Positions 4,501 to 30,305 of a stretch of DNA of 64,000 bases are shown here, in pieces (the stretch's first letter is position 1; each line of letters opens with the position of its first letter). The notes beneath the pieces are model-generated. The model saw only the letters and a program-made list of their open reading frames with translations, made no database searches and had not been told where the DNA came from. This stretch comes from Candidatus Omnitrophota bacterium. Its GTDB lineage: Bacteria; Omnitrophota; Gorgyraeia; Gygaellales; Profunditerraquicolaceae. The position numbers and the translations under genes are program-made. The stretch spans positions 1,692 through 65,691 of the forward strand of contig JAPLLS010000035.1 in assembly GCA_026387435.1 (NCBI GenBank), given 5' to 3'.

Positions 4501-5367
4501 TTAGAATTTCAATTGTCCGCCCTGGGTAAACTTGATCAATATTGGGCCGGCAACAATGATTAAAACCACAGGCAGAATAAAGAAAAGCAGGGGGAATAAG
4601 AGTTTGATCGGCGCTTTTAAAGCCATTTCCTCGCCTTTTTGAAAGCGGATATCGCGCAATTCTTCAGCGTGCATTTTAAGCGCGGTAGTGATCGGAGTAC
4701 CCATTCTATCCGCTTGGAGCAAAGTGCGGACAAAAGAATTGATCTCCTGGCTTTTAATCCGGGCGGCCAGGTTTTTCAAAGAATCCCTGCGGGAAAGGCC
4801 CATCTGGATCTCCCGGACTAAAACTTTCAATTCCTCAACTAATACGCACGGCCGGAATTCTTTAATGACATGATTAACCGCAACCATAAAATCCAGGCCT
4901 GCGCCAACGCAGATATTCAAAAGGTCGATTACATACGGCAGGTCTTTTAAGACTTCTTTTTTTCTTTTCTTGATCTGGTTGGTAAGCCAAAGATCCGGGA
5001 GAAAATAGGCTATGACCATGGCCAAAACTAAGATCCACGGCTGAGGCTGGAAAAGGATATAGAGCCCTAAAGGCAAGCCAACCGTAGACAAAAACTTCAG
5101 GGCCATGAACTGGCTCATGTTCATAGGCCTGCCGGCAGCATATAATTTAAGTTTGATCTTTTCCGTAAATTTTGATTTTTTGACCAGCCGGTCGGTGAAT
5201 TGGGCGGTAAAACTCAAAACTTCTTTAGTGTCGAATTTCTTGGACTCTTCCTGGCCTTTCATCTCCTTAGGTAAAGTGACTTCTTCCAGCACGTGCTTGC
5301 TGGTCAATAAGAAGAAGGCCATGCTGATACAAAGAATCAATAACATCAAAGCCATAACTAAAAGCAT
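4501..5367 (-). CDS. tadC: TadC-like pilus assembly inner-membrane protein (T2SS-F/GspF domain)
   Basis: 288 aa polytopic protein. Its T2SSF-type cytoplasmic domain (…LKVLVREIQMGLSRRDSLKNLAARI…QADRMGTPITTALKMHAEELRD…) is followed by C-terminal TM helices. It lies directly after the TadB-like gene. Confidence 0.8.
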   Translation of the reverse strand: MLLVMALMLLILCISMAFFLLTSKHVLEEVTLPKEMKGQEESKKFDTKEVLSFTAQFTDRLVKKSKFTEKIKLKLYAAGRPMNMSQFMALKFLSTVGLPLGLYILFQPQPWILVLAMVIAYFLPDLWLTNQIKKRKKEVLKDLPYVIDLLNICVGAGLDFMVAVNHVIKEFRPCVLVEELKVLVREIQMGLSRRDSLKNLAARIKSQEINSFVRTLLQADRMGTPITTALKMHAEELRDIRFQKGEEMALKAPIKLLFPLLFFILPVVLIIVAGPILIKFTQGGQLKF

Positions 5368-5368: not shown

Positions 5369-6220
5369 TTACACCTCTACCTTGCTTAATTTTCTGATCA
5401 GGATTATGCCGATTATTTCCGAACACGCCGCCCAGATCAAAAGCTTCCGGCCAATAGGGCTATTAAGCATTATATCGAAACTTTCAGGATTCACTTGTTT
5501 TACAAACAAAGCAAAAGCGATCGGCAGGATGCACATGATCAGTCCCTGGAGCCGGCCCTGCACGGTTAAAGCCCTGACTTTTCTCTCCAGCTTGATCTTG
5601 TCTCTGATGGTAATAACCAGCTGGGCGAAAATATCGGTTAAATTACCTCCGGTCTCGCGGGCTACGGAAACTGCGGAAGTTATCAGCCCCAAATCGTCGA
5701 TCGGCATTCTTTTCCTCAAATTATCCAAGCACTCATCCAGCGGCATTCCCATGCTGTTTTCCCTGACTACCAGGGCAAATTCTTCACGCATGGGGTCAGG
5801 CATTTCTTCGACCAATATTTCAAAAGCCTGGTTTAAACTCATCCCCGCTTTTAAAGCGCTGGAAAGGATCATTAAGGCATCAACCAGCTGCCCCTGGAAT
5901 TTCATCCTGCGCCGGAAAGCCAGGTTCTTCATTATAGCTGCGGGGATAATGAAACCGACGGCAAGGCCCGCGCCGATGCCGATAAGAGGGAATTTGCGCA
6001 ACAAAACATACCCCGCCAAGGCTAATACCACCGGGGATATGGTAAAGAACGGCAACATCTTGCGCCCCTGGTTGGCCATGAACAGGCGGTCAAGGCCGGA
6101 CGCGGTTGTATCCATTCTTTTTTTCTGAAGCTTGGAATATTTATCCGTGCCTACGGGAATGGACACATAGGCCAAGTATCCGATCGACCCTAAAAAAAGA
6201 ATGAGGATTATAAATACCAT
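5369..6220 (-). CDS. tadB: TadB-like pilus assembly inner-membrane protein (T2SS-F domain)
   Basis: 283 aa; T2SSF domain signature (…DALMILSSALKAGMSLNQAFEIL…SVARETGGNLTDIFAQL…) with flanking TM segments. Confidence 0.8.
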   Translation of the reverse strand: MVFIILILFLGSIGYLAYVSIPVGTDKYSKLQKKRMDTTASGLDRLFMANQGRKMLPFFTISPVVLALAGYVLLRKFPLIGIGAGLAVGFIIPAAIMKNLAFRRRMKFQGQLVDALMILSSALKAGMSLNQAFEILVEEMPDPMREEFALVVRENSMGMPLDECLDNLRKRMPIDDLGLITSAVSVARETGGNLTDIFAQLVITIRDKIKLERKVRALTVQGRLQGLIMCILPIAFALFVKQVNPESFDIMLNSPIGRKLLIWAACSEIIGIILIRKLSKVEV

Positions 6221-12433: not shown

Positions 12434-12778
12434 TTATTCTATAATTATAATTTCATCTTTTATTTGAGTTTTACTGGCTTGAATTGCCCCTTCGGGTAAT
12501 TCAATAGTAGTAATTGCCTTAAAGTAGATCGGGCTTACCCGAAACGGCTTGAACCCGGGAGTTAGGGCGATTACCTGCCTATTGCGGTCCAGGAATATGG
12601 CGTCAAAAGTAAAGCGCATGAAAAAAGAGTGGATGGAATTGGAAGGAGTAATAATTAGGCCTTCGCTTGGCTTAAGGCTGGGGCGATTCAATAGCCCGAC
12701 TAATCTCGAAAAGAATGTATCGGCGGTCTTGGCTTTATCCGCAAGAACCGTGTTGCGGGAACGGTTAATTATCCTCAT
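12434..12778 (-). CDS. DUF192 (COG1430) family protein
   Basis: 114 aa; …ADTFFSRLVGLLNRP…GLIITPSNSIHSFFMRFTFDAIFLDRN… matches the DUF192 pattern. Confidence 0.6.
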   Translation of the reverse strand: MRIINRSRNTVLADKAKTADTFFSRLVGLLNRPSLKPSEGLIITPSNSIHSFFMRFTFDAIFLDRNRQVIALTPGFKPFRVSPIYFKAITTIELPEGAIQASKTQIKDEIIIIE

Positions 12779-14959: not shown

Positions 14960-16864
14960 TTATCTTTTTTGTTCTAGATTATACACGATAGGAATTTGCA
15001 CCCAGAGATCCTGCTCGCTTATATCCCGCGGGAAAGACGGGTAAGGAGCAATCCGCCTGGCAATGCTCATAGTATTCTCGTCAAGCACGCTATAACCCGA
15101 TGAATCGCTGATATTAGAATCAAGCAAATCCCCGGCTTTGGCCAGGTGCAGATTTAAAACAACTGTCCCTTGCAGCTCAGCCTGCTTGGCTGCCCAGGGA
15201 TAGAAAATATTATTGCTGAGGTATTCGCTGACTAGCTGGACGTATTCTTCGGCCGGTCCACCGAAAAGAACCTCCTGTTGCCCTTCGGCAAAAGGTTTTC
15301 TAGGGGAAACCGTTGCTCCTTTGTTTTGGACAGGGGCATTGCTCTTGGCAAGAACCGGCTGTTGTCTGCCGCCGGCAAAAGATTTTCCCTGCGAAACGAC
15401 CACTCCTCTATTTTGTTTATTGGCAGGGCCGGTTGCAGCAGCTCCTTGTTGCCCTCCGGCAAAGGGTTTTGTTTGTGAAACTACCACTCCCTTATTGTTT
15501 GCCGAAGAATATATCTTGGGAGCTATCGCTTCTTTACCCTCTTCCGGCCGGGAATCAGCTATTTTATCTCCACCGGGCTTAATTTGATTTTTTTTTTCCG
15601 CTTCCCGCTTTTCCGGGCCTTTATCCTCGACCACTGAGGGGGTAACCATGATGACTAACTCGGTGTCCCCCATCTCATCTTCTCCACCGCCCCTTATGGT
15701 AGTCCGGTGGCGGAAAAATACTCCCAAAATCGGGACTTCACCCAGCCAGGGGAACTTCTTCAGGTCTTCTTCGGTCTTTTGTTTGATCAAACCGCTGATC
15801 GCCAAAGTCTGGCCATTGTTAAGATAAAGCTGGGTAGAGGTTGAGCGTTTGCTTATAGGCCAGGCTTTGGCCGTTGGGGCAGTGACTAAGCCCAATACTT
15901 CCGCAGTCCCGACATCGCTGACTTCCACATTAAGCCCGAGCTTTATTTTTCCGTCGGAATTTAAAGAAGGAGACATTTTCAACTTGATCCCATACTCCTT
16001 ATACTCTACGGTATTGGAAGTGTTCGAACTACCGCTTACGCTTTGAGTGGTCATGACCGGCTTTTCCCCTCCGACCAAAAGCTCAGCTTCCTTGCCGCTC
16101 TGGCAAGACAATTTTGGCCGGGAAAGTATCTTAGCCTTGTTGTCTTTGACCATTAAATTCAAGGTCGCTTCCAATTGCTGATGCGTCCATTCACTCACTC
16201 TGAACAATGAGTTCGGAACATCGGCAAGCCTATCCCAACGCGGGGGCTCAGTAAGCAGCACAGACCCGCCGCTTAAAATCCAATCCATGCCCATTTGTTT
16301 AGTATAGCCTTTGTCTACCTCTATGATTTCGACTTCCAGTTCGATGATCGCTTTTTCTTCTTCGATCTGGATCAAATTGGTGGTCCTGGCAAAAAGGCCG
16401 CCCAGCGCGGTTTTGACCCGTTCCATGTCTTCCTTGGTTTTTACGCTGCCTAACAATAAAACTTTGCCTTCGCTGTCAGAGGGTTCGGTAGAAATCTGAG
16501 ACAAATTCAATTCCTTGAGCAGATCTTTAATCCGAGCATTGACATAAGCCATGGCTTCGGTAAGGACCTTTAAACTTGTATGGTGTTCGCCTTTTTCGTC
16601 CCACCAGATCAAGTTCGTAGATCCGGCCCCTTTGCCGACAACCACGATCTCTTTGGTGCTGACCGAAAGGATATCAGCTATCTCGGGCTTGCCGATGACC
16701 ACGCGAGTAGGAGTATTTACGCTGATCGACTTTAACTCGCCCTGATATAAAGTTTCTTCCGAGGAAGAAATTGCCGCCTTTTTTGTCTCCTGAGAAAAAA
16801 CAAGCTCCCTGCCCGGCAATAAAAACAGAGATAGAATTATTAAAAATGCCCGCGCTTTTCTCAT
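14960..16864 (-). CDS. cpaC: CpaC/RcpA-type secretin with a C-terminal repeat linker and TonB C-terminal-like domain
   Basis: 634 aa. It has a signal peptide and a pilus-formation N-terminal region (VNTPTRVVIGKPEIADILSV…). The secretin core reads …NGQTLAISGLIKQ…FPWLGEVPILGVFF…TELVIMVTPSVV. Three repeats of about 25 aa follow (NKGVVVSQTKPFAGGQQ…). The TonB_C-like end reads …QGTVVLNLHLAKAGDLLDSNISDSSGYSVLDENTMSIARRIAPYPSFP. Confidence 0.7.
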   Translation of the reverse strand: MRKARAFLIILSLFLLPGRELVFSQETKKAAISSSEETLYQGELKSISVNTPTRVVIGKPEIADILSVSTKEIVVVGKGAGSTNLIWWDEKGEHHTSLKVLTEAMAYVNARIKDLLKELNLSQISTEPSDSEGKVLLLGSVKTKEDMERVKTALGGLFARTTNLIQIEEEKAIIELEVEIIEVDKGYTKQMGMDWILSGGSVLLTEPPRWDRLADVPNSLFRVSEWTHQQLEATLNLMVKDNKAKILSRPKLSCQSGKEAELLVGGEKPVMTTQSVSGSSNTSNTVEYKEYGIKLKMSPSLNSDGKIKLGLNVEVSDVGTAEVLGLVTAPTAKAWPISKRSTSTQLYLNNGQTLAISGLIKQKTEEDLKKFPWLGEVPILGVFFRHRTTIRGGGEDEMGDTELVIMVTPSVVEDKGPEKREAEKKNQIKPGGDKIADSRPEEGKEAIAPKIYSSANNKGVVVSQTKPFAGGQQGAAATGPANKQNRGVVVSQGKSFAGGRQQPVLAKSNAPVQNKGATVSPRKPFAEGQQEVLFGGPAEEYVQLVSEYLSNNIFYPWAAKQAELQGTVVLNLHLAKAGDLLDSNISDSSGYSVLDENTMSIARRIAPYPSFPRDISEQDLWVQIPIVYNLEQKR

Positions 16865-17814
16865 TTTTTCTTCCCTTCGGATATTAGAGGAATCACTTCT
16901 TTTTGCAGTCCGCGGTAGACTTCTACGGTAACCGGCATTTTCCCCTCTTCCCTGGCCTTGGGGTATAAATATTCGAATAGATTATCCCAGTTAACCGGGT
17001 CGACCTCGGTCTGGGACAGATCAGAATTGGAACGCGTAACCAGCTTGATCTTTCCCTGTTCCTGAATAAAAGAGGCTAAAGCCGCTTCTTGAGGAGTAAG
17101 CGACAAGGTAACTGCATTTGCCGCGGCACTTGTCCCTTTCCCTTTAGGCTGCTCGATGTGCGCTCCGCCCGTATCTGAACCGATGGCCAGCACCAGGACA
17201 TTTTGAAAAAGCGGCACAGTAACTGACTTTTTTTCCTGTTTTTCCGTCTGTCCTCTGGGAGTTCTATTGACAATAGCATCAATAGTAGACCCCGGCGGAG
17301 GGCTGATTATTGCCAAAGCGTCCACATAATCCCCCGGCTGCAGCAATCCCTGAAGGCTGGCGATATTATCGACCAGCACAGAAACCGCCCTTTTGCCGCG
17401 GGGGGTGATTTCCGAGATGATTTTGGGTTTTTCCGGCGGAGCCCCAAGCTTATTCCTGAGTATCTGCTCGCCTTCGAGGATCTGTGACTGGGCGTACACT
17501 CCGACGATGTTAATAGTTGAGGCTATCGCCCCTGGCTGGATATAATCTTCCGGGACTTCCCGGCTGGCAATATCTTCGGCCACGATCGGCACTCCGGGAG
17601 AAATGGTGCGCGCTGCCACCAGAATAGCAACTTTCTTAACCTGCCTGGCCAGCCTTTCAGCTTCCTCGCGCTTCTTGACCGCTTCTATCTCTGTTTTTAA
17701 CTTCAACTCTTTTTCCGCAATATACATGCGGGCCAACACCGCTGCCAGAATACCACAAGCAATAGCAATTACGATCAACAACTTCTTTTTAAATTCCGGA
17801 TTAGGCTGAAACAT
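16861..17814 (-). CDS. cpaB: CpaB/RcpC-like Flp pilus assembly protein
   Basis: 317 aa. It has an N-terminal TM and a SAF-like segment (VAARTISPGVPIVAEDI). It lies immediately upstream of the secretin. Confidence 0.55.
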   Translation of the reverse strand: MFQPNPEFKKKLLIVIAIACGILAAVLARMYIAEKELKLKTEIEAVKKREEAERLARQVKKVAILVAARTISPGVPIVAEDIASREVPEDYIQPGAIASTINIVGVYAQSQILEGEQILRNKLGAPPEKPKIISEITPRGKRAVSVLVDNIASLQGLLQPGDYVDALAIISPPPGSTIDAIVNRTPRGQTEKQEKKSVTVPLFQNVLVLAIGSDTGGAHIEQPKGKGTSAAANAVTLSLTPQEAALASFIQEQGKIKLVTRSNSDLSQTEVDPVNWDNLFEYLYPKAREEGKMPVTVEVYRGLQKEVIPLISEGKKK

Positions 17815-17817: not shown

Positions 17818-18708
17818 CTATTTCACCTTTTCTTGGTAATACGTAACGCTGGTTTTTTTGGCTAATTTGCCATTGAGCTCCTGCATTTTCTGCCGTTGTT
17901 TTATAGACACATAGGTACTCTTAACCTCGTCCCAAACATCATTTAAAGAAGGCACCTGGCCTCCGCGGCTGGCATCAAGCCTGATGATGTAATAGCCCCG
18001 CTTGTCTTTAAACACCGAGCTGATCTGCCCGTTTTCCAAAGAAGGCGAGAAGGCAATTTCGTCAAATTTCTTAAAGTCTGCCCCCCGCTGGCCTTTGGCG
18101 ATAAAACCCAGATCCCCGCCCTTAGAAGCGCTTTCCGCCTTGGAGCGCTCCTGAGCTAATGAAGCAAAATCCGTGCCTTTCAGCAATTCAATGAGGACCT
18201 CTTTAGCCTCGGCTTCGGTAGGCACCATAATTTCGCGGATCCTCCGTTCTTCGGCGGGGCGGAACTGGTCCTTATACTGCGCGTAGAAAGCCTCTATTTC
18301 CTTGGCCGGAGGGTTGGAATCTATGGTTTCTTTACTCAAAAATTCCCCGGCAACCAGGCTTACTTCCACATTTAAAAGCTGCTCTCTGATCTTGGGCTCC
18401 TTGTCAATGCCGTTGGCCTTAGCCTCGATATAGAAAAGATACCGGGGGACCAATACTTCTTTTAAGTAAGCGGTCTTTTCTTCCGGAGTCAATTTCTTAG
18501 GCTCAGCGTCCTTATTGAAGCGGGCATTCATCTCCGCGATCTCCTGGTCCAGCTGTTCCAGGGTAATATACATATTTCCTACTTGGGCAATGATCGTTCC
18601 TTCGGGTTTGACGGAGGGGGTAAGCGCGGTTGCGCCTATTTTCAGTTTTTCACAGCCGGTTAACGAAAAGGCGAGCAGGATCAAAAAAAAGAAAAACGAG
18701 TTTTTCAT
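17818..18708 (-). CDS. Lipoprotein parvulin-type peptidyl-prolyl isomerase (PpiC/PrsA/SurA-like)
   Basis: 296 aa. It has a lipobox LTGC and a rotamase domain …RRIREIMVPT…GGDLGFIAKGQ…FDEIAFS…GQISSVFKDKRGYYIIRL. It lies 4 bp upstream of cpaB. Confidence 0.6.
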   Translation of the reverse strand: MKNSFFFFLILLAFSLTGCEKLKIGATALTPSVKPEGTIIAQVGNMYITLEQLDQEIAEMNARFNKDAEPKKLTPEEKTAYLKEVLVPRYLFYIEAKANGIDKEPKIREQLLNVEVSLVAGEFLSKETIDSNPPAKEIEAFYAQYKDQFRPAEERRIREIMVPTEAEAKEVLIELLKGTDFASLAQERSKAESASKGGDLGFIAKGQRGADFKKFDEIAFSPSLENGQISSVFKDKRGYYIIRLDASRGGQVPSLNDVWDEVKSTYVSIKQRQKMQELNGKLAKKTSVTYYQEKVK

Positions 18709-18924: not shown

Positions 18925-19641
18925 ATGCAAAAAACCCCGGAAAAACTCAGCCTGTCAGTAATCTTGCCCATATATAACGAAGAGGCGAATGTTGAACTTA
19001 CCTTAAAAACGATCCTGGCTTATTTGGAAAAGCTGACCGATGATTTCGAGATCATCGCGGTCAATGACGGCAGCACGGACCAAAGCCCAAAAATCCTTGC
19101 GGAATTAGCCCGCAAACATCCCCGGATCAGTTTAATAAACAGCCCTAAAAACACCGGCTATGGCTGGGCCCTCAGAAAGGGGATAATCTCGGCCGCGAAA
19201 GATTGGATTTTGCTTTTCGATGCGGACGGCCAGTTCGACATAGCTGATCTGGAGAGGCTGTGGGAAGCAAAAGCCGGGATTGATTTTATCCTGGGCTGGC
19301 GCAGAAGAAGAAATGACAATCCCTACCGGAGGTTGCTGGGCTCAAGCGGGAATTTCCTGGCTAATCTTATTTTAAGGATCCAGCCCTTTATCAAGGATAT
19401 TAATTGCGGATTTAAGTTATTTAAAGCCGGATTAATAAAACCTCTGGCTTTAATGTCCGCGGGAGCAACAATAAACTTTGAAATCCTGTATAATTTGAAA
19501 AATTACCGCCCTGTATTCATTCAACTTCCGGTCAGCCATTACCCGAGAAAAGCCGGACGCGCTACCGGAGGAGACCTTAAGAACGTAGCGATACTTATAA
19601 AGGAATCTTTTAAAATAATATTTAAAAATGCACCTACTTAA
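18925..19641 (+). CDS. Family-2 glycosyltransferase (polyprenyl-phosphate sugar synthase / DPM1-like)
   Basis: 238 aa; …LSVILPIYNEEAN…IIAVNDGSTDQS… and a DAD motif (…LFDADGQFD…). Confidence 0.7.
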   Translation: MQKTPEKLSLSVILPIYNEEANVELTLKTILAYLEKLTDDFEIIAVNDGSTDQSPKILAELARKHPRISLINSPKNTGYGWALRKGIISAAKDWILLFDADGQFDIADLERLWEAKAGIDFILGWRRRRNDNPYRRLLGSSGNFLANLILRIQPFIKDINCGFKLFKAGLIKPLALMSAGATINFEILYNLKNYRPVFIQLPVSHYPRKAGRATGGDLKNVAILIKESFKIIFKNAPT

Positions 19642-21235
19642 ATTCAGAAAAACCGGCCCGGCCATATTGTTCATCTTGGGAGCATTGATTTTGCTGCTTT
19701 TGCTGAACGCCGCAATGAAAAATACCTTTGAGTTCGACCCTGACGAAGGCACTTACCTTGTTATAGCCAAGCTTTCCCTTCAGGGGTTCAAACTTTACAG
19801 CCAGATCTGGAACGACCAGCCGCCGCTTTTTACCGAACTTCTTTCTTCGTGGTTTAGAATATTCGGCGCCAGCGCGTATTCCGGAAGGTTTTTTAATTTA
19901 ATCTTTTCCCTGTTTCTGCTCTGGGGGCTTTACCGGATTATAAAACTCCGGAGTGGCAGTTCGGCCGCTTTGGCCGCGGGTATTTTTCTGATCTTATCGC
20001 AGGGATTCCTCCGTTTGGGCATTTCGATCATGCCCGGGCTGCCCAGCCTGACCCTGGCCGTGCTTTCCCTTTACAGCGCGACCATTTATTCGGGATCAAA
20101 AAGCAAACCGGCGCTCTTTATCTCGTCGGCTTTTATGGCTTTCGCGCTGGCGACTAAATTTTCCTCAATTATTTTAGCCCCTTCCGTCTTCCTGGAAATC
20201 GGCCGGGCCGAAGAAAAAACCGATAGACCTTTTCCCGCCCGCCCAAAAAATTTTATTTTGCCGTTTTTCTGGCTGATAAGCAGCCTGGTTTTTTACATTT
20301 GCTTTATGTGGCCGTATTTTTATTTGAATTTAAACTTATTTGCCGAACAGCTCTTCAGCCCTCATTTGGCAAAACTAAATATCCCCGGCGCTGATTTTAA
20401 TGTGATCTTTGCGCAGCTTTTACTGGATTATGACCTGGTTTTGCTGGGAGCTGTTGCCGTATTTACAAATCTTCGTTCTGGCGCCAGGCGCAACATCCTT
20501 CTGCCCGCTGTCTGGCTGGGGCTGGCCATTACCTGTTTTGTCATCCACCGGCCGATCTGGTATCATTATTATTTGCTGGTCTCTATCCCGCTTTGCTGGC
20601 TGGCGGCAGTCGCCCTGGGGCAATTCCTTGAAAGGAAAAACGGCAAGAATCCCAAAAGATTCCTTTATTATTTAAGCTTCGCCCTGGTTGTTTTGGCCAT
20701 GGCGCGGATACCGTTTAAATTTATCGATGGCTGCCTTATCTTGAAAGAACCGCCTATAGGAGAGGAAAAAAGAATCCTGGATCTAATATCGAAGTTTAAA
20801 AAAGACGGCCAATGGATGTTCACCGACCTGTCTATTTTCGCCTTCTCGAGCAATATTCTCGTACCACCGGAAACAGCGGTCTTAACCCAAAAAAACCCGC
20901 CCACAACAAAACTCGCGGCATCGGTCTTAAAAAAATACAAACCCGAACTGATATTATTGGGGAGGTTCACGGATTATGACCGGCAAATGATATCCGAGAT
21001 CCAGAAGGATTACCGCAAAGAAAGCGAAATAACGATTTTTCGGCCGGGATCTTTCCCGGTAAGCTCCTGGCTGCCTATCGCAGTATTTTTGACTCCCAGG
21101 ATACAATACCCCGTCAACAAGTGGCTGCGCCGCTTGAACTGGCAGCCTAAGATCCTGATAACGGAGCGGATCGGTTTTTTCTATACTCAAAACCTGACCT
21201 TATTTATCCGCAAAAATAACGCTGATCAATTTTAA
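19628..21235 (+). CDS. GT-C fold glycosyltransferase (PMT/ArnT family-like, GT39/83-type)
   Basis: 535 aa polytopic membrane protein with the first-loop DE motif (…FDPDEGTYLVIAKL…). Confidence 0.55.
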   Translation: MHLLKFRKTGPAILFILGALILLLLLNAAMKNTFEFDPDEGTYLVIAKLSLQGFKLYSQIWNDQPPLFTELLSSWFRIFGASAYSGRFFNLIFSLFLLWGLYRIIKLRSGSSAALAAGIFLILSQGFLRLGISIMPGLPSLTLAVLSLYSATIYSGSKSKPALFISSAFMAFALATKFSSIILAPSVFLEIGRAEEKTDRPFPARPKNFILPFFWLISSLVFYICFMWPYFYLNLNLFAEQLFSPHLAKLNIPGADFNVIFAQLLLDYDLVLLGAVAVFTNLRSGARRNILLPAVWLGLAITCFVIHRPIWYHYYLLVSIPLCWLAAVALGQFLERKNGKNPKRFLYYLSFALVVLAMARIPFKFIDGCLILKEPPIGEEKRILDLISKFKKDGQWMFTDLSIFAFSSNILVPPETAVLTQKNPPTTKLAASVLKKYKPELILLGRFTDYDRQMISEIQKDYRKESEITIFRPGSFPVSSWLPIAVFLTPRIQYPVNKWLRRLNWQPKILITERIGFFYTQNLTLFIRKNNADQF

Positions 21236-22795
21236 ATCGCTTCCCGGCTTAAAATAAAAAAAACTTCTCAGTTCTTTACTGACCTTATCCGCCAAGACCA
21301 AGACTGGCCGGATAACAAATTCTCCGGCGCTGGTCTTTAATTTCAAAGAGGCCTCCTTGTTCTTGAGCACAAATACTGCCTCCTGGCCACCTTCAAGAAA
21401 AATCTGCTTATCAGCACCGTTTTTAAGGCCGCGCGGGGCATATAATGTTAATCCTTCGAAAAATTTAAAACTATACAGAGGCAAATTCTCTACGGCATTT
21501 ACTTCTAATCCGGCATATCTCAGCGGCATTGTACAGCCATGGGCAGCAAGCCCATCGACGTTTTTGCCTCTCCAGGAACTTTTATGCCAGTTATTTAAAT
21601 TAAGCGAATTAACCAGGACCTGCGAGCTGACTAAAACCGCAGGCAGGAAAAATAAAAAGATCAATAGGGGTTTTTTAATTCCTTTAAAAGCTGCCGGCAA
21701 AAGCAGCGCCGGATAAATAAAAAAATACCGGTTGCCGAAAAACCCTATTCCTCCGAAATAATTCAAAGGCCGAAAAACTAACAATACAACTGCCAGAATA
21801 ACCGCCGTAAGCAGAATGCTGTCGCCTTGCGACGTTTGTTCCCGCGGGACACTTTTCCTGCGCCACAGATAAATCAAGATACAGACCGCAGCGGGAAAAC
21901 CGTACCAGAGAATGCCGCTAAACCTCCCGGTAAAAAAATTAACGATGTTGCTTGAAAAAAGCTGTGGAGAGTTAAATCTCATATCCGCTAGTTCAGAAGG
22001 AGCCAGCACCAAGCGGAGCCGTAATTCCTCCAGGCTCTGCGGGATGGCCCCGCCGAACAAAATATATTTAGGATCGCTGTAGGCGAAAAAGGTCTTAAGA
22101 CAATATCTTGTCAGAAGAATAGTAAGGATCAGGCCGAAAGAACAAAAACCAAGCGCCTTTAATAGCTGTTTAATCTTGTTTTTAGCCGCCAAATCCCCGG
22201 CCAGGGGTATCAACATAAGCAGAAATGTTATTTTCTCGCCGGCTATTAAACCGATGATAAAAGCGCAGGCCATTGGCTTATTAACGCTTAACAGAAAAAT
22301 ACACAAACTGCAGGAAAAGAACAAAAAGATATCCGGGGTGACCCAGCTTATATAGGCCGGGACAAAACTGAATAAAAAAAATCCGGCGGCTATTAATAAA
22401 GAAACGCGCCTGCCCAGATAGCGGCGCAAACCAAGATAAGAAAAAACTATGCATAATCCCAAAAGCAGGCCATTTAACCCGGCTAACCCAAGCCGGCCGA
22501 AGATCAAGAAGAAAAAAGCGGCGACCACCGGATAAATTACCGGTTTGGCATAACGCATATTGCCTGCGGCGTCCATCCTTACATATACCCCCACAGGGAC
22601 GGCCTCAAATTTTTCTTTATCCCACCTCTGGGCTTCTTTGTGGTCCAGCACAAGGTCGCCGTCTTTTGCCAGAGAACTGATCATCATATAATAAGAAACG
22701 CTATCGCCATGGATATGCGGACCGGCCCAGGCTGCGAATAAAATTACCAGCAGTAAAACAATGCCAATAATCCTGGTTTCAATTGCCATCTTCAT
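21200..22795 (-). CDS. Polytopic membrane protein, putative GT-C-like glycosyltransferase
   Basis: 531 aa with more than 10 predicted TM helices. The N-terminal loop reads HGDSVSYYMMISSLAKDGD. It is convergent with the preceding GT-C gene. Confidence 0.35.
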   Translation of the reverse strand: MKMAIETRIIGIVLLLVILFAAWAGPHIHGDSVSYYMMISSLAKDGDLVLDHKEAQRWDKEKFEAVPVGVYVRMDAAGNMRYAKPVIYPVVAAFFFLIFGRLGLAGLNGLLLGLCIVFSYLGLRRYLGRRVSLLIAAGFFLFSFVPAYISWVTPDIFLFFSCSLCIFLLSVNKPMACAFIIGLIAGEKITFLLMLIPLAGDLAAKNKIKQLLKALGFCSFGLILTILLTRYCLKTFFAYSDPKYILFGGAIPQSLEELRLRLVLAPSELADMRFNSPQLFSSNIVNFFTGRFSGILWYGFPAAVCILIYLWRRKSVPREQTSQGDSILLTAVILAVVLLVFRPLNYFGGIGFFGNRYFFIYPALLLPAAFKGIKKPLLIFLFFLPAVLVSSQVLVNSLNLNNWHKSSWRGKNVDGLAAHGCTMPLRYAGLEVNAVENLPLYSFKFFEGLTLYAPRGLKNGADKQIFLEGGQEAVFVLKNKEASLKLKTSAGEFVIRPVLVLADKVSKELRSFFYFKPGSDLKLISVIFADK

Positions 22796-25700
22796 TATTT
22801 TTATGGCGGGTTTCTTTTAAGGGATAAGAAATCATGTTGGCAAGGTTCTTCAATGCGCCCGGATGGAATTCCCGGAGTTGGCGGTTCCAGGAAAAAGTGC
22901 TGAAAATCAGGCTTCCCCGGCCGTAATCAGAAACAAGATAGCCGCTTTTTACAGCCTGACATTGAAAATCCGGACAGCTGGTCAATTCTTTAAAACGGCG
23001 ATCGTATTTTTCGGGGAAAAACAGCCCTCTTTCCTGGCGCCAGCCGGAAAAATCTCCTGCGGAAACTTTATTGGGCCAGTTAAAAAGCGGATGTTCAGGA
23101 ACAAGAAAGGTGACCGGGCTGGCAGGGTCGACTATCCCGTCAAAAATCATTTGGAACTGCCCGGAGACAATGCTAACCGTCTCCGGCTTTCTGGGCTGAA
23201 ACAAAACTACCAGGTTACCTCCCTTAGCCGTAAAATCTTCCAATTGTTTGCGGATATTTTCATCGGAAAACAGCTTATCAGCGCCCTTGCCGATCAAAAT
23301 AGTGTCCAGCCCGGATAAATCATTTTCCCGGATGTTTTTTTCATCCAGGTTCTTCAAGTCGCAACCCAGGATCTTAAGGCTGGCAAATAAAATATTGTCA
23401 TCCCGTTCGATCAAACCAATCCTCAATTTAGCTGCTATCTTTATCCCGGGGAACCCGGAATAAGCGGCTTTTGAGTTCTCCCCGGGATTAATCCCGCCTG
23501 CTTTATATTTGTCATCATCGGCTTTCTTAACCAGCCCATATACGATTTTTCCGGGATAGGAAAAAAGATCGGCCATCTCCCCCTGGCTTTTGTGCTCACT
23601 CAAAGATTCCTCGGCCAGTTTACGATAAGTCTTGTTGACCGAAGGTATCAGCTCATCAGGATCGATTGCGATCTCATCCAGCGGCCCCCCTTCTTTTTGA
23701 GCGAATTTTCTTTGATAAACTCTGTCCGCTTGCCAGGCCGGCAACCCGTCCTTGATCATCTCGGGCAGAGTTTTAGGATCGCCGGAAAGGTCAAAGGCCT
23801 CCTGACCGAGAATATTCAGCGCCTGATGAGCGCAATGGTCAACCGAAGCGGTGTACTCAGTGATCACGATATCCGGGCGGATCAGCCGGAAAAAATAAAC
23901 CAGCTGCAATAATGTCTCTTGTTTCCCCCAGTTTTGAAAGGCTTCCTGCGGGTCAAAACAATACCCGAAATCCTTCTTGTTCAAGTAATAGACCCGGTCA
24001 ACTCCTAAAACCTGCGCAGCCCGCTCCATCTCTTCGGTGCGCAAAAAACCCAAATCATCATACAATACCGGGCTGATCTGATTCTCTCCGGCCTCTCCCC
24101 GAGTAGCTAATAGAATGTAAGTTTTGGCATTAAACCTTTTTTTGAAATAGGCCAGGCTTTCGGCTTCTTCGTCGTCCGGATGAGCCGCCAGACAGAGCAC
24201 ACGAAGCTCTCCGGAGGGAAGAACCGGCCTAATCCGGCTAAGCATTTCTTGAAGCCGGGTTAATTTAAGGATCATCCGATCAGCCAGAAGCTCCGGATGG
24301 GATCGATCATGGATATTCCCGAATTTCTGCTCTTCTAAATCCCAGCGCAGGAAGGTTTCCTTAAAAAGCTTGTAAGCGCAGATTGCCGTGTTACGATCGG
24401 GAAAATTCCTCAGCCATTTTATTGGCAGGTCCCTAAAGTCTTTAAGGATTACAGCGGGAGCATCGCTTACCATGTCTATATACAAGGGCGAAAGGAAATC
24501 CGGGTTGGGAGGGGCTAAAATTTTTCTTTGCTTAATTTCCGTGTACTCTTTGATATATCCGTCAACCGAGCCGGCAAGGATATTTATTATCCTCTCCTGC
24601 TCTTCCCGGGAAAGCAGGCTGAAATCAAAAAATGATCTTTCGGTTGCGCAAGACGTTTTTCGTTCATCCTGAGCCTTGGTGCCGGGCGGAAACTTTTCCC
24701 CCTGGGGATTAAAGATTCTTTCAAATTCTCTGCCGGTTAAATATGCGCTCTGCGTGTCAAGATCGAGCTTAACTTCGATCACCCCGCCTCCTTCATGCTG
24801 TCCGGCGATAAAAAAAGGCGTTTTTGCCCTAGCTTGGACTTGCGGGATAATTTTATACTCGCGGACATGTATGCCGCCCAGGTTATATTTAATCGCCACC
24901 TCGGCGTCGCCGTAGGTATCAATGATGATTTTTTGGCATATTTTGTCCTCAAAGGACATGGCTTTTAATAAGTATGCCAGCGGCTTGCCAAAAACCTTCT
25001 CTTTTTCTTTCAATATCCTGGATACCGAATCGTCGATTTCCCGCTCGGTAAGTTTGCCGTCTTTGACGGCTTTCTTAACTGATCGCAGTACGGTAAGGAT
25101 GACTTCCTCGGCTTTTTCCGGATCAGGATAGATTATGACCATATCCGTCCCCGCGGAAAAAGACATGGCCGCGATTTCTCCAATAAAAGGCCCGGCGATC
25201 CCTTGCTGCAAAGCGTATTCTCCCATCGCCTGCATGTTCAGCAATTCATCGGAAATGATCAGCCCCTTAAATCCCAGTTTTTTCCTAAGAAGCTGGCTTT
25301 GGATCTTATAAGACAGCGAAGCGGGTTTATTATCGAGGGCCGGATAGATGGCATGGCTGGTCATGATCATAAAGGGCCGGTTTTTTCTGATCAATTTTTT
25401 ATAGGGGGCTAAATCTTTCTCCTCAAGGCTGGATTTGGAGGAATCGACTTTAGGCAGCCATTTATGGGTGTCGTTGAACGCTGACCCCAGCCCGGGAAAA
25501 TGCTTTACCACCGGTATCACGTCTTGAGAATTATGCGCTTGAACGATCCGGTCGACCAATTGAAAAACCAATTCCGGATTATCGGAGAATATCTTTTCTT
25601 TTTTTACCAGGACTATGCCGGAATCGTTAATATCTCCGGCTACATCGGCGACTACGCCAAGATTAAGATTATAACCGTAGCTTTTCATCCGGGCCGCCAC

Positions 25701-26606
25701 CCCGGACCATTCATCCCCCAGCCGGGCAAGATATCCCTCTTTTGAATCCGGGACATGATAAAAAGATTCGTCTTTTTGAATGAAATAATCGGCCAATTTT
25801 TTCATTTCCTCCAGAACTAATTGGGTGCGGTATTCTTTTATGGCCTCAGCCTTAGCCAGCTTTAAAGAGGAAGCGACGCCCTGACCATTAGAACATAAGT
25901 CAACAGCCGGAACTCTCGAATTGGAAGTTGTATGGATTATATAGTAAAAAACTTCGGGGTTAATGAATTTATCTTTTTGCTCGTTTTTGAGCTCATCCAG
26001 CGCTTTATTCAAAAAATTAGCGCCGGCAACGTGATCTTTGTGTTTGTCTAGGGGGGAAGGCGAGTAAATTATCTTGGGCTGGTATTTTTTGAGAATATCT
26101 TTGATGTCCTGGGTCAGGTTTTCCCGGCTGTATCCGGATTTCGCCCTGCCCCAGGTTTTCTTATAAATCGAAGAGGATTGATTGGTATGCTCTGATCTAT
26201 ACCTGACATGTTCTTCCTGGCCCCACAAGAAAATCAGCCCGTCATCGGGGTAGCCTAAAAAAATCAGGTCTTCTTGAGGCAAGCCCATCTGAATTGCTGC
26301 CCGCAGCGCTTCTTCCTGGCGCTCTTGACCCAAGGCAATATAATCCTGCGCCGCGACCCCGGATTCGGGTTTATTTGCAAAAGCGGCTGCGCCGGACTCC
26401 GAACCATCACCATTGGTCAAAAAAACCACTTTTATTTTCTTGTGCTCTTTCACCCCCTGGATTATTGTTTGGCCGCAGGCCAGGGCTTCATCGTCCGGAT
26501 GAGGAGCAAATACCACCAGATCGACCGGTGGATCTTGGGCTTCCAAAAAAGAAGCGGCAAAAAAAATCGAAAGACAAGAAAATAAAAAGAGTTTTAAAAA
26601 TCTCAC
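22779..26606 (-). CDS. Secreted multidomain enzyme: LmbE/PIG-L deacetylase + GH3 (NagZ-like beta-N-acetylhexosaminidase) + second LmbE/PIG-L domain + C-terminal GATase1-like domain
   Basis: 1275 aa with a signal peptide. LmbE motif 1: VVFAPHPDDEALACG…HKDHVAGANF. GH3: VVKHFPGLGS…GFKGLIISDEL. LmbE motif 2: VLCLAAHPDDEEAESLAYF…DHCAHQALN. Confidence 0.6.
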   Translation of the reverse strand: MRFLKLFLFSCLSIFFAASFLEAQDPPVDLVVFAPHPDDEALACGQTIIQGVKEHKKIKVVFLTNGDGSESGAAAFANKPESGVAAQDYIALGQERQEEALRAAIQMGLPQEDLIFLGYPDDGLIFLWGQEEHVRYRSEHTNQSSSIYKKTWGRAKSGYSRENLTQDIKDILKKYQPKIIYSPSPLDKHKDHVAGANFLNKALDELKNEQKDKFINPEVFYYIIHTTSNSRVPAVDLCSNGQGVASSLKLAKAEAIKEYRTQLVLEEMKKLADYFIQKDESFYHVPDSKEGYLARLGDEWSGVAARMKSYGYNLNLGVVADVAGDINDSGIVLVKKEKIFSDNPELVFQLVDRIVQAHNSQDVIPVVKHFPGLGSAFNDTHKWLPKVDSSKSSLEEKDLAPYKKLIRKNRPFMIMTSHAIYPALDNKPASLSYKIQSQLLRKKLGFKGLIISDELLNMQAMGEYALQQGIAGPFIGEIAAMSFSAGTDMVIIYPDPEKAEEVILTVLRSVKKAVKDGKLTEREIDDSVSRILKEKEKVFGKPLAYLLKAMSFEDKICQKIIIDTYGDAEVAIKYNLGGIHVREYKIIPQVQARAKTPFFIAGQHEGGGVIEVKLDLDTQSAYLTGREFERIFNPQGEKFPPGTKAQDERKTSCATERSFFDFSLLSREEQERIINILAGSVDGYIKEYTEIKQRKILAPPNPDFLSPLYIDMVSDAPAVILKDFRDLPIKWLRNFPDRNTAICAYKLFKETFLRWDLEEQKFGNIHDRSHPELLADRMILKLTRLQEMLSRIRPVLPSGELRVLCLAAHPDDEEAESLAYFKKRFNAKTYILLATRGEAGENQISPVLYDDLGFLRTEEMERAAQVLGVDRVYYLNKKDFGYCFDPQEAFQNWGKQETLLQLVYFFRLIRPDIVITEYTASVDHCAHQALNILGQEAFDLSGDPKTLPEMIKDGLPAWQADRVYQRKFAQKEGGPLDEIAIDPDELIPSVNKTYRKLAEESLSEHKSQGEMADLFSYPGKIVYGLVKKADDDKYKAGGINPGENSKAAYSGFPGIKIAAKLRIGLIERDDNILFASLKILGCDLKNLDEKNIRENDLSGLDTILIGKGADKLFSDENIRKQLEDFTAKGGNLVVLFQPRKPETVSIVSGQFQMIFDGIVDPASPVTFLVPEHPLFNWPNKVSAGDFSGWRQERGLFFPEKYDRRFKELTSCPDFQCQAVKSGYLVSDYGRGSLIFSTFSWNRQLREFHPGALKNLANMISYPLKETRHKNNEDGN

Positions 26607-28807
26607 TGCTCTCTTTGGATGTAAATATCGTCTTTGCTCATGCCGTAGTGCCCCTTGGTTCGGCTGGTAATGCCGTAAGTTGTCAAGCCGGAGGCTGCAC
26701 TGCCGGGGGCTCCTGTTCGCTGAATGCCATCAATGATCCCGCTTAAATCATTTATGGGCCATTCCGGACCTGCGGGATTCCTGCGGTACCTGAACGTCCA
26801 CCAGGGGCCAACGGCAATATCATTGGTATAGCGCGAGACCGTAATATCGCCTATCGAGCCGCTAAGCTGGCCCTTAATAGTCCAGGTTTTCAAAAGGCCG
26901 CCCCAATCATATCCTTCTTTTATATACGGGAATTTATCTCTTGAGGGATAATTGTCCAGCAGCACTTGGGCAATATGATAGTTATGGTTTTTCTCGTCTA
27001 CCCAGCCGTAGATCGCTTCTTTTTGCAAATCCTCCGTAGTAGTATCGGGATACAATATCTTATTGGCCGCATTAGCGAAGGTCTCAATGGCGTCCATAAC
27101 ACCTCGCAGAGAGGTTTCTAAATTAACTAAAAGCTCAATGGCCTGGGCTATTTCTGAAGGCCCTGAAGTGGTGGCCCAGTTCAGTTCTCCTTGAAAACGG
27201 CAAGCCTGTATCGCGTGCGAACTGGGAGTGTGCGGTCCTCCGCAATCGTTACAAGGGCAATACACTGACCGGGTACGAAGAGGGCAAGGCGGGCTAATAG
27301 TGCTGTACAAATCCCCGTGGCCGCATAATCCTAATGAATATAATTCCGGATTGCAAGAGCAATAATTCCCAAACCAGGTGCAAGTATGGAAGGGGCAGCA
27401 ATAACATATGCATTGCCCGGAATCGTTGTATTTACAACAATACGTGCTGGCGCACTCATACGCGTCCGTACCTGTACCATTAAGGCAATCGCCATTAGGC
27501 AGGGGAACAATATTGCTGACATCAGCATTGATCATCTCCAATTGAGTGCGCCAAGCCAGGATCCCATTTGTTGTGGGGTTTCCATACACTACTTCATACA
27601 ACCTTCCATAGATGGTGTCAGGGTCATGGGGATTATCCTTATTATACCAAATTGGCAACCAGTCACCAAGAGTGGGGATCCGGCCAGAGACCGGGAGGTT
27701 GAGTAACTCCATGTCCCTGAGCAGGAATCCGCGCAACACCTCACTAACTTGCCCAATCTCTTGGTTGGTCCAAGTTACATAGCCGGCATATACCGGAGCA
27801 GCGAGCAGCCTAGTAGTCAATTCAGTGAATTTCTGGGGCAAGAATCCTGTGTTGGCGTTGCCGGTTATAAGCTGCCAAAACCATTGCCAAATATCCGTAG
27901 GCTCATTTGCGGTGACATGCGAAATTATTCTTACTATCTGTTTATCTGGAACAGCCCAGTCAGGGCAAGCGCCGTCGTCACAAGTTATATGCAAGGCGTC
28001 TACTTTTAAAGAAACCTCGGTATACATCCATGTTGTAGTGTCCCATTTATTGAACTCAGTGACCTTTACCAGGTTGTTGATAAGCAGCGCGATCTCCGGG
28101 CCTAAACCCGCTTCCGTTACCTTGCGATGGCGATCAGCCCAATACCAGCAAACATAACGGGGCACCTCTTGCTTCCCCTTCAAAATAGGGGCTTCGGGCG
28201 TATTGGTTAAATCGTATATATATGCATCGTCTACTATCAACACCCCATTTTTATCATAGTGGGATGCCAGTATGTACTGGTATACGTCTTCGGATTTTAG
28301 TGTCGCACGTTCTTGATCCGTCTGGGCCTGCTCAAGCATGGAGCCTATAGCACCCTCCCTGAGGGAGGAATATTCGGTCATTTGCGCGGCCGCATTCGAG
28401 AATCCGGCTTTCATAAGAAAATTAATTTCGCCCCAAAGTGGATTGGCGACCAGTATTAGTATTCCTAAGCTCAACGGCCGGCTCCAAAACGCAAGAACAA
28501 GAGCTAACAATACTCCAAATAGAGGGAGGATCAACCCCCAATTAAAACATACGAGTTGTGTGTCACCGATCATACCGCAACCAAACCCGGTAGCGAGTTT
28601 TCGTCTCAAAGTATCCCGTAACTCATTGATATACTGCGACCACTGCGAAGCCAGTTGCAAAGTGCCGCTGTCCGCGATCTGGGAGGTGGAAGTTTTGATA
28701 TCGCTGACTTTGCTGATATTGATGAGGACTATGGTTAAAAGGATTATGACCGCGATAAAGATGGTGATGATTACCACTACCTGGCCGGGAGTCTTTTTGG
28801 TTTTCAA
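26603..28807 (-). CDS. Cys-rich membrane-anchored protein of unknown function
   Basis: 734 aa. It has an N-terminal TM (VVVIITIFIAVIILLTIVLINI) and a dense Cys cluster (…CASTYCCKYNDSGQCICYCCPFHTCTWFGNYCSCNPE…CPCNDCGG…). It overlaps the downstream LmbE-GH3 gene by 4 bp. Confidence 0.5.
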   Translation of the reverse strand: MKTKKTPGQVVVIITIFIAVIILLTIVLINISKVSDIKTSTSQIADSGTLQLASQWSQYINELRDTLRRKLATGFGCGMIGDTQLVCFNWGLILPLFGVLLALVLAFWSRPLSLGILILVANPLWGEINFLMKAGFSNAAAQMTEYSSLREGAIGSMLEQAQTDQERATLKSEDVYQYILASHYDKNGVLIVDDAYIYDLTNTPEAPILKGKQEVPRYVCWYWADRHRKVTEAGLGPEIALLINNLVKVTEFNKWDTTTWMYTEVSLKVDALHITCDDGACPDWAVPDKQIVRIISHVTANEPTDIWQWFWQLITGNANTGFLPQKFTELTTRLLAAPVYAGYVTWTNQEIGQVSEVLRGFLLRDMELLNLPVSGRIPTLGDWLPIWYNKDNPHDPDTIYGRLYEVVYGNPTTNGILAWRTQLEMINADVSNIVPLPNGDCLNGTGTDAYECASTYCCKYNDSGQCICYCCPFHTCTWFGNYCSCNPELYSLGLCGHGDLYSTISPPCPLRTRSVYCPCNDCGGPHTPSSHAIQACRFQGELNWATTSGPSEIAQAIELLVNLETSLRGVMDAIETFANAANKILYPDTTTEDLQKEAIYGWVDEKNHNYHIAQVLLDNYPSRDKFPYIKEGYDWGGLLKTWTIKGQLSGSIGDITVSRYTNDIAVGPWWTFRYRRNPAGPEWPINDLSGIIDGIQRTGAPGSAASGLTTYGITSRTKGHYGMSKDDIYIQREQ

Positions 28808-30302: not shown

Positions 30303-30305
30303 TCG

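Follow-up and report, generated by a model that had tools for sequence, protein, structure and literature searches.

A Tad pilus secretin of Candidatus Omnitrophota carries a TonB-type C-terminal domain that may serve as a periplasmic anchor

This study concerns a gene of Candidatus Omnitrophota that lies on a 64,000-nucleotide stretch of contig JAPLLS010000035.1 (assembly GCA_026387435.1), hereafter called the window. The gene, at positions 14960-16864, encodes the outer-membrane secretin of a complete Tad/Flp pilus operon, and this secretin ends in a canonical TonB/TolA-type C-terminal domain (TonB_C). Comparison of related proteins indicates that the fusion is ancient, has been inherited together with the secretin, is under purifying selection, and is the norm for Tad secretins of the phylum Omnitrophota. 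By analogy with other Tad machines, we propose with moderate confidence that the TonB_C domain acts as a cis-encoded periplasmic anchor or collar, which would replace secretin accessory proteins, and not as an energy transducer driven by the proton-motive force (PMF). Both parts of the fusion are well known. What is new is the C-terminal module on a Tad secretin, for which we suggest a putative function.

Domain architecture of the secretin

The gene had been singled out in an initial reading of the window that was made without database searches (the sequence-only reading). This reading had described a CpaC-type N domain and a secretin core, followed by an extension of about 230 residues that holds three tandem repeats and ends in a segment with the pattern of the TonB C-terminal fold. 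As checks, it had named HMMER searches against the Pfam models TonB_C (PF03544) and Secretin (PF00263), a structure prediction of the C-terminus, and a search for the same fusion in related genomes. The lack of a significant TonB_C hit or predicted fold, or a reading frame resulting from a missed stop, had been named as evidence to the contrary.

The open reading frame (ORF) is uninterrupted and comprises 634 codons between an ATG start and a TAA-type stop at positions 14960-14962. The plus-strand translation of the same region is full of stops, and thus the gene lies on the minus strand; the sequence-only reading had given no strand. All peptide strings quoted in the sequence-only reading were recovered verbatim from the translated ORF. 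The Pfam matches to PF13629 (T2SS-T3SS_pil_N) and PF00263 clearly exceeded their cut-offs (Table 1), and AlphaFold2, supplied with 120 homologs, yielded a confident model of residues 35-412, in which the N domain is followed by another ring-type domain of alpha/beta structure and by the secretin barrel. In Foldseek comparisons with the PDB, the fold of this front part matched GspD, InvG, PilQ, and RcpA. The best 40 matches were all secretins, with the Tad secretin RcpA (8odn_A) in 13th place (E 2.3e-14); for the end of the protein, the same comparison yielded C-terminal domains of TonB. The N domain and the secretin core are thus confirmed. The second ring-type domain (residues 105-167) gave weak Pfam matches to YscD BON-like domains and no others. 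Judged from its sequence, the predicted signal peptide contains no lipobox and does not resemble a TonB-type membrane anchor; AlphaFold placed a helix at residues 4-14 and disorder at residues 17-32. The extension beyond the secretin core is likewise present, although it measures 221 amino acids (aa) and not about 230.

Identity and fold of the C-terminal domain

The Pfam model PF03544 matched residues 552-630 over profile positions 2-79 of 79, with an E-value of 8.4e-14 and a score of 52.2 bits at a cut-off of 24.6. The TonB_2 model matched the C-terminal domain more weakly, and the NCBIfam model TIGR01352 (tonB_Cterm) reached 50.7 bits at a cut-off of 27.1. In the full-length AlphaFold2 model, residues 537-630 showed values of the predicted local distance difference test (pLDDT) of 94-97 and the order helix-helix-strand-strand-helix-strand. 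A separate AlphaFold model of residues 440-634 (195 aa) yielded the same domain with a pLDDT of 94-98. The 26 best PDB matches of this fragment model were exclusively C-terminal domains of TonB, HasB, FusB, and TolA. The globular domain of Neisseria TonB (9dc4_T) superposed with a root-mean-square deviation (rmsd) of 1.6 Å over 78 columns, and the TonB chains of the complexes with BtuB (2gsk_B) and FhuA (2grx_C) were also among the Foldseek matches of the domain.

A profile built from the domains of 30 family members retrieved only TonB, HasB, and TonB2 chains from the PDB. The best of these matches (E 4.4e-12) spanned the full length of the C-terminal domain of Helicobacter pylori TonB, including its extra N-terminal helix, a feature that the Omnitrophota domain has in common with both H. 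pylori TonB and HasB. With TonB, HasB, FusB (all PF03544), and domain III of TolA, it shares the profile, the order of secondary structure elements, and the three-dimensional fold. The canonical signatures of TonB_C are all retained, namely the motifs YP, SSG, and LD as well as a beta3 strand that is highly conserved and contains invariant Pro and Tyr residues; Y555 and P556, which constitute the YP motif, are invariant across the 120 homologs. The HMMER searches thus gave TonB_C and Secretin matches above cut-off, the structure prediction gave a TonB/TolA-type fold, and the C-terminal domain is a canonical member of this group, just as the sequence-only reading had claimed.

Distribution and conservation of the fusion

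A first homolog search, covering proteins from NCBI, JGI, ENA, and Logan assemblies, returned 862 protein clusters at E <= 0.001. The best 120 of these 862 all carried PF13629, PF00263, and PF03544 and were 37-79% identical to the query. In a genome scan with one genome per GTDB species, 295 genomes were found to encode a relative, and all locus counts given here cover the best 80. Hidden Markov models of the secretin part and of the TonB_C part, built for scoring their co-occurrence, placed both within one ORF at 79 of the 80 loci; the exception was cut by the end of its contig. Almost all of these loci were labelled Candidatus Omnitrophota or Omnitrophica. Some bore the labels 'uncultured Planctomycetales', 'bacterium', or 'Deltaproteobacteria', generic names of metagenome-assembled genomes (MAGs) that we regard as unreliable. 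The search for the same fusion in related genomes was therefore successful. A missed stop, a frameshift, or a chimeric assembly was considered as the origin of the fused gene and ruled out, because the ORF has no internal stop and the same single ORF recurs at 79 of 80 independent loci.

Mean pairwise identity within the family decreased from the secretin core (61%) through the domain at residues 105-167 (54%), the pil_N domain (50%), and TonB_C (47%) to the linker (16%). The pairwise identities of the secretin core and of TonB_C were correlated (r = 0.63), and none of 500 Mantel permutations reached this value. Such a correlation is what a single ancient fusion, inherited jointly, would give, as opposed to repeated captures of the domain.

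An exhaustive HMMER search with the TonB_C domain alone retrieved 5,623 cluster representatives (50% identity) at E <= 0.001 and 219 at E <= 1e-10. The best 150 representatives were sorted; four were known from the first search, and the remaining 146 were classified. More than half of these were secretin fusions (82 of 146), either with one TonB_C domain (69) or with two (13). Another 24 showed a single TonB_C match, many of them being short fragments, and 40 contained 2-6 TonB_C domains in tandem and gave no match to the secretin model. Pfam analysis of 10 of those 40 revealed eight M56 (BlaR1-type) peptidases with three to four TonB_C domains, one protein consisting of TonB_C domains only, and one TolC-like outer-membrane protein of the OEP family preceded by two TonB_C domains. 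Outer-membrane channels with a fused TonB_C are thus not restricted to one architecture. Taken together, the M56, OEP, and double-TonB_C secretin cases mark TonB_C as a portable periplasmic binding module, which has been attached to another outer-membrane channel as well. The M56 fusions resemble the secretins in the use of such a module, but they are anchored in the inner membrane and are not part of a pilus machine. The OEP protein represents a second case on an outer-membrane channel, again outside a pilus machine.

The double-TonB_C secretin and OEP cases correspond to the relatives P0127, P0129-P0131, P0134, P0135, P0137, P0140, P0149, P0152, and P0249, all of them from outside the window.

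Database name and protein content

The identical protein at NCBI (P0001, 100%) is entered as 'MAG: TonB family protein [Candidatus Omnitrophica bacterium]', and homologs at JGI are called 'pilus assembly protein CpaC'. TIGR01352 was the only NCBIfam model to score above its own cut-off, whereas the secretin equivalog models all remained far below theirs, which explains the name given by NCBI. TonB and TolA proteins are defined by their C-terminal domain together with a spacer that spans the periplasm and an N-terminal membrane helix, to which ExbBD or TolQR binds as the motor (PMC12204202). Instead of a motor-binding transmembrane helix, the protein described here starts with a signal peptide, which is followed by about 375 residues of secretin. 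Thus, the TonB_C domain would hang from the outer membrane. In place of a periplasm-spanning spacer, the family has a linker with a median length of 36 aa (124 aa in this member). Among the larger ORFs that were scanned with Pfam in the 64-kb window, there was no exbB, exbD, tolQ/tolR, TonB-dependent receptor, or tol-pal gene, and none was found at the locus of the ortholog P0016 (locus L081 on a 149-kb contig, 56% identity). In TonB, HasB, FusB, and TolA, an N-terminal helix on ExbBD or TolQR holds the domain at the inner membrane, from where it reaches outward; the Omnitrophota domain, by contrast, is predicted to hang on a short linker from an outer-membrane channel and lacks the motor-binding anchor.

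Apart from the NCBI name and the NCBIfam result behind it, we see little that would make the protein a true TonB energy transducer or the fusion an artefact, and we consider both extremely unlikely. The cleavable signal peptide, the 375 confidently modelled secretin residues, and the lack of an N-terminal membrane anchor and of exbBD neighbours contradict the first idea. The second is contradicted by the uninterrupted ORF and by the recurrence of the single-ORF architecture in 79 of 80 assemblies and in 82 of 146 cluster representatives. This reading was therefore rejected. The fused form is the standard Tad secretin of the whole phylum, named automatically either 'TonB family protein' or 'CpaC'. 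The systematic misnaming by NCBI hides Tad secretins from genome surveys and may inflate the counts of 'TonB' in Omnitrophota.

The linker and its repeats

Linker length, taken as the stretch between the secretin and TonB_C profile matches, was determined for 199 members of the family. The interquartile range around the median was 29-54 aa and the 5th-95th percentile range 24-125 aa, and the TonB_C domain was always located 0-5 residues from the C-terminus. With its 124 aa, the protein encoded at 14960-16864 is an outlier within the family. Residues 416-534 of its linker were disordered in the full-length model (pLDDT 31-47), and the linker had a pLDDT of 47-56 in the fragment model.

The three tandem repeats noted by the sequence-only reading are real, but their period is 28-29 aa and not about 25. 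The best ungapped self-match of the linker scored 69, compared with 28.7 ± 5.0 in shuffled sequences, and 0 of 500 shuffles reached 69. The repeat cores, NNKGVVVSQTKPFAGGQQG (residues 456-474), QNRGVVVSQGKSFAGGRQQP (residues 484-503), and QNKGATVSPRKPFAEGQQE (residues 513-531), are 19-20 aa long and have 11-14 of 19 residues and about 70% of their nucleotides in common. At the DNA level, the repeats were not detected by Tandem Repeats Finder, which reported just an unrelated 11-nucleotide (nt) repeat for the gene. Among the homologs, the motif was seen only in the closest relatives (P0002-P0007 and P0012); it persists in relatives of 51-82% identity while the remaining linker diverges. The linkers of the other homologs are unrelated in sequence and mostly much shorter. 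The repeats are a lineage-specific decoration of an unusually long linker and not a feature of the family.

It is conceivable that the repeats (KGVVVSxxKxF) mimic a TonB box in cis and dock onto the TonB_C domains within or between subunits, which would lead to autoinhibition or to daisy-chaining of the ring. The repeat core (hydrophobic-V-V-[S/T]) bears a loose likeness to the TonB-box core of E. coli transporters, and this likeness would agree with such a role, as would the retention of the motif in the diverging linkers of the relatives. Both AlphaFold models, however, show the repeats as low-confidence coil (pLDDT 31-38 in the full-length model; 47-56 and coil according to DSSP in the fragment model), and no strand is added to TonB_C. 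Moreover, the repeats are absent from most of the family and thus cannot explain the conserved fusion. We consider docking of this kind very unlikely.

A putative cis-encoded anchor or collar

In the arrangement that we favour, the C-terminus of the secretin would emerge on the periplasmic side of the barrel wall, just beneath the outer membrane. The 13-14 TonB_C domains of an assembled ring would then sit around or just below the barrel, out of reach of the inner membrane. A linker of 25-40 residues is too short to cross the periplasm, so that the conserved function would have to take place near the outer membrane and the barrel. The sequence-only reading had suggested two roles for the domain, anchoring to peptidoglycan and coupling to TonB-box partners. 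Judging by the short family linker, any partner of TonB_C would have to reside in the outer-membrane-proximal periplasm.

The Tad secretin RcpA of Pseudomonas aeruginosa ends in an unstructured C-terminal S-domain, which measures about 17 aa. Its final four residues are bound by the tetratricopeptide repeat (TPR) pilotin TadD, an interaction that secretin assembly requires (PMC10499894). In the Omnitrophota secretin, TonB_C would take the position of this pilotin-binding tail. The lipoprotein CpaD of Caulobacter is encoded immediately downstream of cpaC and is a predicted peptidoglycan binder; in a published model, it surrounds the barrel like a belt of spokes (PMC13170226). RcpB is listed in a published Tad study as an outer-membrane-associated Tad component. 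Linker and TonB_C would thus fill the gene slot between rcpA and tadZ that is elsewhere taken by RcpB or CpaD. The classical Tad gene order is rcpCAB-tadZA, with rcpB between the secretin gene and tadZ. No TPR/TadD-like, OmpA-like, RcpB-like, or CpaD-like gene was found among the tad genes of the window or at L081, and the conserved gene families of the 80 loci included none either.

The missing TadD-, RcpB-, and CpaD-like genes led us to propose TonB_C as their cis-encoded replacement, and the short linker, the position at the S-domain and in the RcpB slot, and the modularity of TonB_C favour an anchor or collar. The domain might fix the secretin to an outer-membrane-proximal element. Peptidoglycan is one candidate; another is a protein associated with the wall or the outer membrane, of which a beta-strand would be captured by strand augmentation, as is typical of the TonB_C fold. 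An anchor of this kind would stabilise the assembly and withstand the pull of an adhesion pilus during retraction.

Several points weigh against this proposal. Peptidoglycan binding by TonB-type C-terminal domains is poorly established, and their documented activity is the binding of short beta-strands such as the TonB box and the TolA box. We found no conserved linear box motif in the periplasmic proteins of the operon, and the N-terminal tethers of the peptidyl-prolyl isomerase (PPIase) lipoprotein encoded at the start of the operon and of CpaB are poorly conserved. Some members of the family, including the protein encoded at 14960-16864, have linkers of 120-214 aa that could extend much deeper into the periplasm. 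The argument from the gene slot and the S-domain position is an analogy, and analogues of TadD, RcpB, or CpaD could be encoded elsewhere in the genome, beyond the operon.

As a candidate TonB box, we considered the C-terminus of CpaB (VTVEVYRG...VIPL), which was the sole terminal strand with strong conservation among the periplasmic proteins of the operon. It was rejected because it corresponds to the known beta-hairpin of RcpC, which binds the N domain (T2SS-T3SS_pil_N) of the secretin RcpA (PMC12307814). This hairpin of CpaB is conserved at the Omnitrophota loci.

Alternatively, TonB_C could capture the TonB or TolA box of a transporter, of TolB, or of another outer-membrane protein and thereby link the pilus, physically or functionally, to import, signalling, or the Tol-Pal system. 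This would fit the complete set of canonical signatures and the superposition on TonB domains solved with transporters (9dc4_T, 2gsk_B, and 2grx_C). Beta-strand augmentation is, in addition, the established activity of the fold (PMC12204202), and the tandem TonB_C domains of some relatives suggest a binder that exploits avidity. On the other hand, the window and the inspected flanks contain no gene for a TonB-dependent receptor, ExbBD, or TolQR-TolB-Pal, no candidate box motif is conserved in the operon, and a preprint on complete Omnitrophota genomes reported no canonical TonB-dependent receptor clusters beside pilus and giant-protein loci. On balance, we consider coupling through a TonB box rather unlikely.

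An extended version of the same idea is that the outer-membrane-tethered ring of TonB_C domains captures a box-like strand of an ExbBD- or TolQR-coupled protein, of TolB-Pal, or of an outer-membrane transporter. We regard this as improbable. If true, it would amount to an inverted TonB system, in which secretin gating, retraction load, or the uptake of host material is mechanically coupled to the PMF in ultra-small, host-dependent bacteria.

A role restricted to assembly also deserves attention. TonB_C could be a docking handle for biogenesis that is recognised by the PPIase lipoprotein, the beta-barrel assembly machinery (BAM), or the Lol system, replaces the S-domain and TadD, and stays idle in the finished machine. 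TonB_C is located exactly where RcpA has its pilotin-binding S-domain, and the operon is devoid of a TadD-like TPR lipoprotein in the window, at L081, and in the families of the 80 loci. Furthermore, the first gene of the operon codes for a lipoprotein that combines a SurA_N-like region with a parvulin domain at 69 of the 80 loci, an arrangement that is not known from other Tad loci. Against this, the region of the PPIase that follows the lipid anchor is poorly conserved, and a merely transient need would not obviously explain the two TonB_C copies of some relatives. Piloting in cis without a further function therefore appears to be of low probability.

The anchor or collar that we prefer can be compared with other secretin systems. 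RcpA (P. aeruginosa RcpA-TadD, 8odn) and CpaC (Caulobacter crescentus CpaC-CpaD) resemble the Omnitrophota protein in the pil_N domain, the secretin core, the overall fold, and the gene position after rcpC/cpaB. They differ at the C-terminus and in their partners. RcpA has its short unstructured tail for TadD, whereas the Omnitrophota secretin ends in a linker and a folded TonB_C domain and has no TPR lipoprotein in its operon. CpaC is encircled by the separate OmpA-like lipoprotein CpaD, for which the Omnitrophota operon has no gene. The AMIN domains of PilQ, the LysM protein TsaP, and ExeA/GspA are modules or partners that fix secretins to the cell wall. The concept of a secretin with a wall-fixing module is common to these systems and our proposal, but AMIN domains are N-terminal and have an unrelated fold, and peptidoglycan binding by TonB_C is not established (for secretin-associated wall binders, see PMC5285504). 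A targeting feature in cis is also embodied by secretins other than those of wall-binding systems: here, the Omnitrophota protein, with its plain signal peptide and C-terminal folded domain, differs from the HxcQ liposecretins in the kind of feature that is proposed. HxcQ-type liposecretins are self-piloting, carry an N-terminal lipid anchor, and do without a separate pilotin.

Relation to published work

We found no description of a secretin with a TonB C-terminal domain in a literature search that covered few of the subscription journals. The survey of Omnitrophota that analysed Tad and RcpA does not contain the word TonB (PMC10066038), the review on the evolution of TonB and TolA does not contain the word secretin (PMC12204202), and recent papers and a preprint on Tad structures do not mention a fusion of the two (among them PMC10499894, PMC12307814, and PMC13170226). 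A 2026 preprint noted two 'TonB-domain' genes beside Tad cassettes and giant proteins in Omnitrophota and did not recognise their nature; we suspect that these genes code for fused secretins of the present family. The statement of the sequence-only reading that the architecture has not been described therefore agrees with the literature searched. At the same time, the architecture is neither rare nor unique: hundreds of publicly available genomes encode it.

The Omnitrophota are mostly uncultured nanobacteria with predatory or parasitic traits, and Tad pili are regarded as their principal means of attachment to hosts (PMC10066038). Piloting and wall attachment of Tad secretins vary with the species and involve TadD in Pseudomonas (PMC10499894) and CpaD in Caulobacter (PMC13170226). 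If our proposal holds true, a self-carried TonB-type domain in place of accessory proteins would be a third solution beside these two. The domain, so far met almost exclusively as the working end of inner-membrane energy transducers, would thereby be put to a new use.

The Tad operon and its surroundings

The secretin gene belongs to a tightly packed minus-strand operon with the order PPIase lipoprotein, cpaB, secretin, tadZ-cpaF, DUF192, helix-turn-helix (HTH) protein, about 13 flp-like pilins, tadB, and tadC (Table 1). The components of a tad operon, that is, cpaB, cpaF/tadA, tadB, tadC, and flp pilins, are all present in the window, and the same gene order was observed at L081 and at most of the 80 loci. 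The stop of cpaB overlaps the start of the secretin gene by 4 nt, and tadZ-cpaF begins 1 nt past the secretin stop codon. In the fused TadZ-CpaF protein, TadZ occupies residues 3-266, and the CpaF/TadA ATPase follows at residues 337-664. A published Tad study reports a tadZA fusion from Bdellovibrio bacteriovorus as well.

Table 1. Features of the secretin gene and of the surrounding tad operon; positions refer to the window, residues to the encoded protein, and locus counts to the best 80 loci
Feature	Positions	Strand	Details
Tad (CpaC/RcpA-type) secretin with C-terminal TonB_C, whole gene	14960..16864	-	634 aa, followed by a stop codon
Predicted Sec signal peptide, residues 1 to about 24, MRKARAFLIILSLFLLPGRELVFS	16793..16864	-	read from sequence; putative cleavage site
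T2SS-T3SS_pil_N domain, residues 38-100	16565..16753	-	Pfam PF13629, 48.9 bits, cut-off 23; pLDDT >90
Second periplasmic alpha/beta domain of ring-building type, residues 105-167	16364..16552	-	AlphaFold order H-E-E-H-E, pLDDT about 90
Secretin beta-barrel core, residues 170-413 (Pfam match 238-413)	15626..16357	-	PF00263, 135 bits, cut-off 27.5
Disordered Lys/Ala/Glu/Pro/Gly/Gln-rich linker, residues 414-536	15257..15625	-	AlphaFold pLDDT 31-47
Three tandem repeats in the linker, residues 456-531	15272..15499	-	core KG-V-V-V-S-x-x-K-x-F-A-x-G-x-Q; period 28-29 aa
TonB_C including N-terminal helix, residues 537-632	14969..15256	-	ends 2 residues before the stop codon; PF03544, TIGR01352, AlphaFold, Foldseek
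Parvulin-type PPIase lipoprotein, first gene of the operon	17818..18708	-	SurA_N-like region and rotamase domain; lipobox LTGC; 69/80 loci
cpaB/rcpC (alignment complex)	16861..17814	-	PF16976 and SAF; TIGR03177, 151.9 bits; 75/80 loci
Fused TadZ (ParA/MinD-like)-CpaF/TadA ATPase, 726 aa	12778..14958	-	Pfam/NCBIfam; 73/80 loci
DUF192 protein	12434..12778	-	PF02643; 53/80 loci
Protein with N-terminal HTH, 351 aa	11270..12325	-	weak N-terminal matches to HTH_32 and IS630
Array of about 13 Flp-type pilin/pseudopilin genes, 49-322 aa	6245..10916	-	N-terminal motif KGQSxLEY; Class_III signal match
TadE/TadG-like gene within the pilin array, 322 aa	6659..7627	-	translation
tadB, inner-membrane platform	5369..6220	-	PF00482 T2SSF
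tadC, inner-membrane platform	4501..5367	-	PF00482 T2SSF

The Gly-Cys of the PPIase lipobox is conserved at 90% or more. The PPIase itself could be a dedicated chaperone of the secretin or a substitute for a pilotin. The 351-aa HTH gene was considered as a stray transposase; this was rejected, since homologs occur at the same position at 45-49 of the 80 loci. These homologs, encoded between DUF192 and the pilin genes, consist of a variable low-complexity spacer and a conserved C-terminal domain. The pilin family was found at 43 of the 80 loci, and with about 13 genes, the array between the HTH gene and tadB is unusually large.

Directly downstream of tadC, an ORF of at least 1,302 aa on the minus strand (positions 1-3906) extends beyond the start of the window. 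Its product has an N-terminal membrane segment and a match to Peptidase_C39 at residues 169-252 (E 1.8e-7). No Pfam model matched the rest, which has a high content of Gly, Ala, Ser, and Thr. The product may belong to the long or 'giant' proteins that have been described beside Tad cassettes in Omnitrophota. The rest of the window is ordinary chromosome with genes for tRNA synthetases, complex-I-like subunits, pyruvate:ferredoxin oxidoreductase, DXS, and RNase Y.

At 42 of the 80 loci (L011, L013, L014, L016, L017, and L023 among them), the PPIase gene is directly preceded by a gene for a conserved 80-aa membrane protein (MREHLGFLK...IAKIADLL.KIINEIKKE), which lies about 2.8 kb upstream of the secretin gene; none was seen in the window. 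Genes for a FIST-domain protein, a GAF histidine kinase, and a GGDEF response regulator adjoin the tad operon in divergent orientation at 31-36 of the 80 loci (L002, L015, L043, and others). In the window, these genes are located at 29091-32730 on the plus strand, displaced by about 10 kb through an inserted block at 18925-28807. This block codes for a GT2 glycosyltransferase, a PMT_2 protein, a 531-aa protein, a 1,275-aa protein with PIG-L and GH3 domains, and a 734-aa protein. The FIST, GAF, and GGDEF neighbours suggest that the pilus is under the control of cyclic di-GMP.

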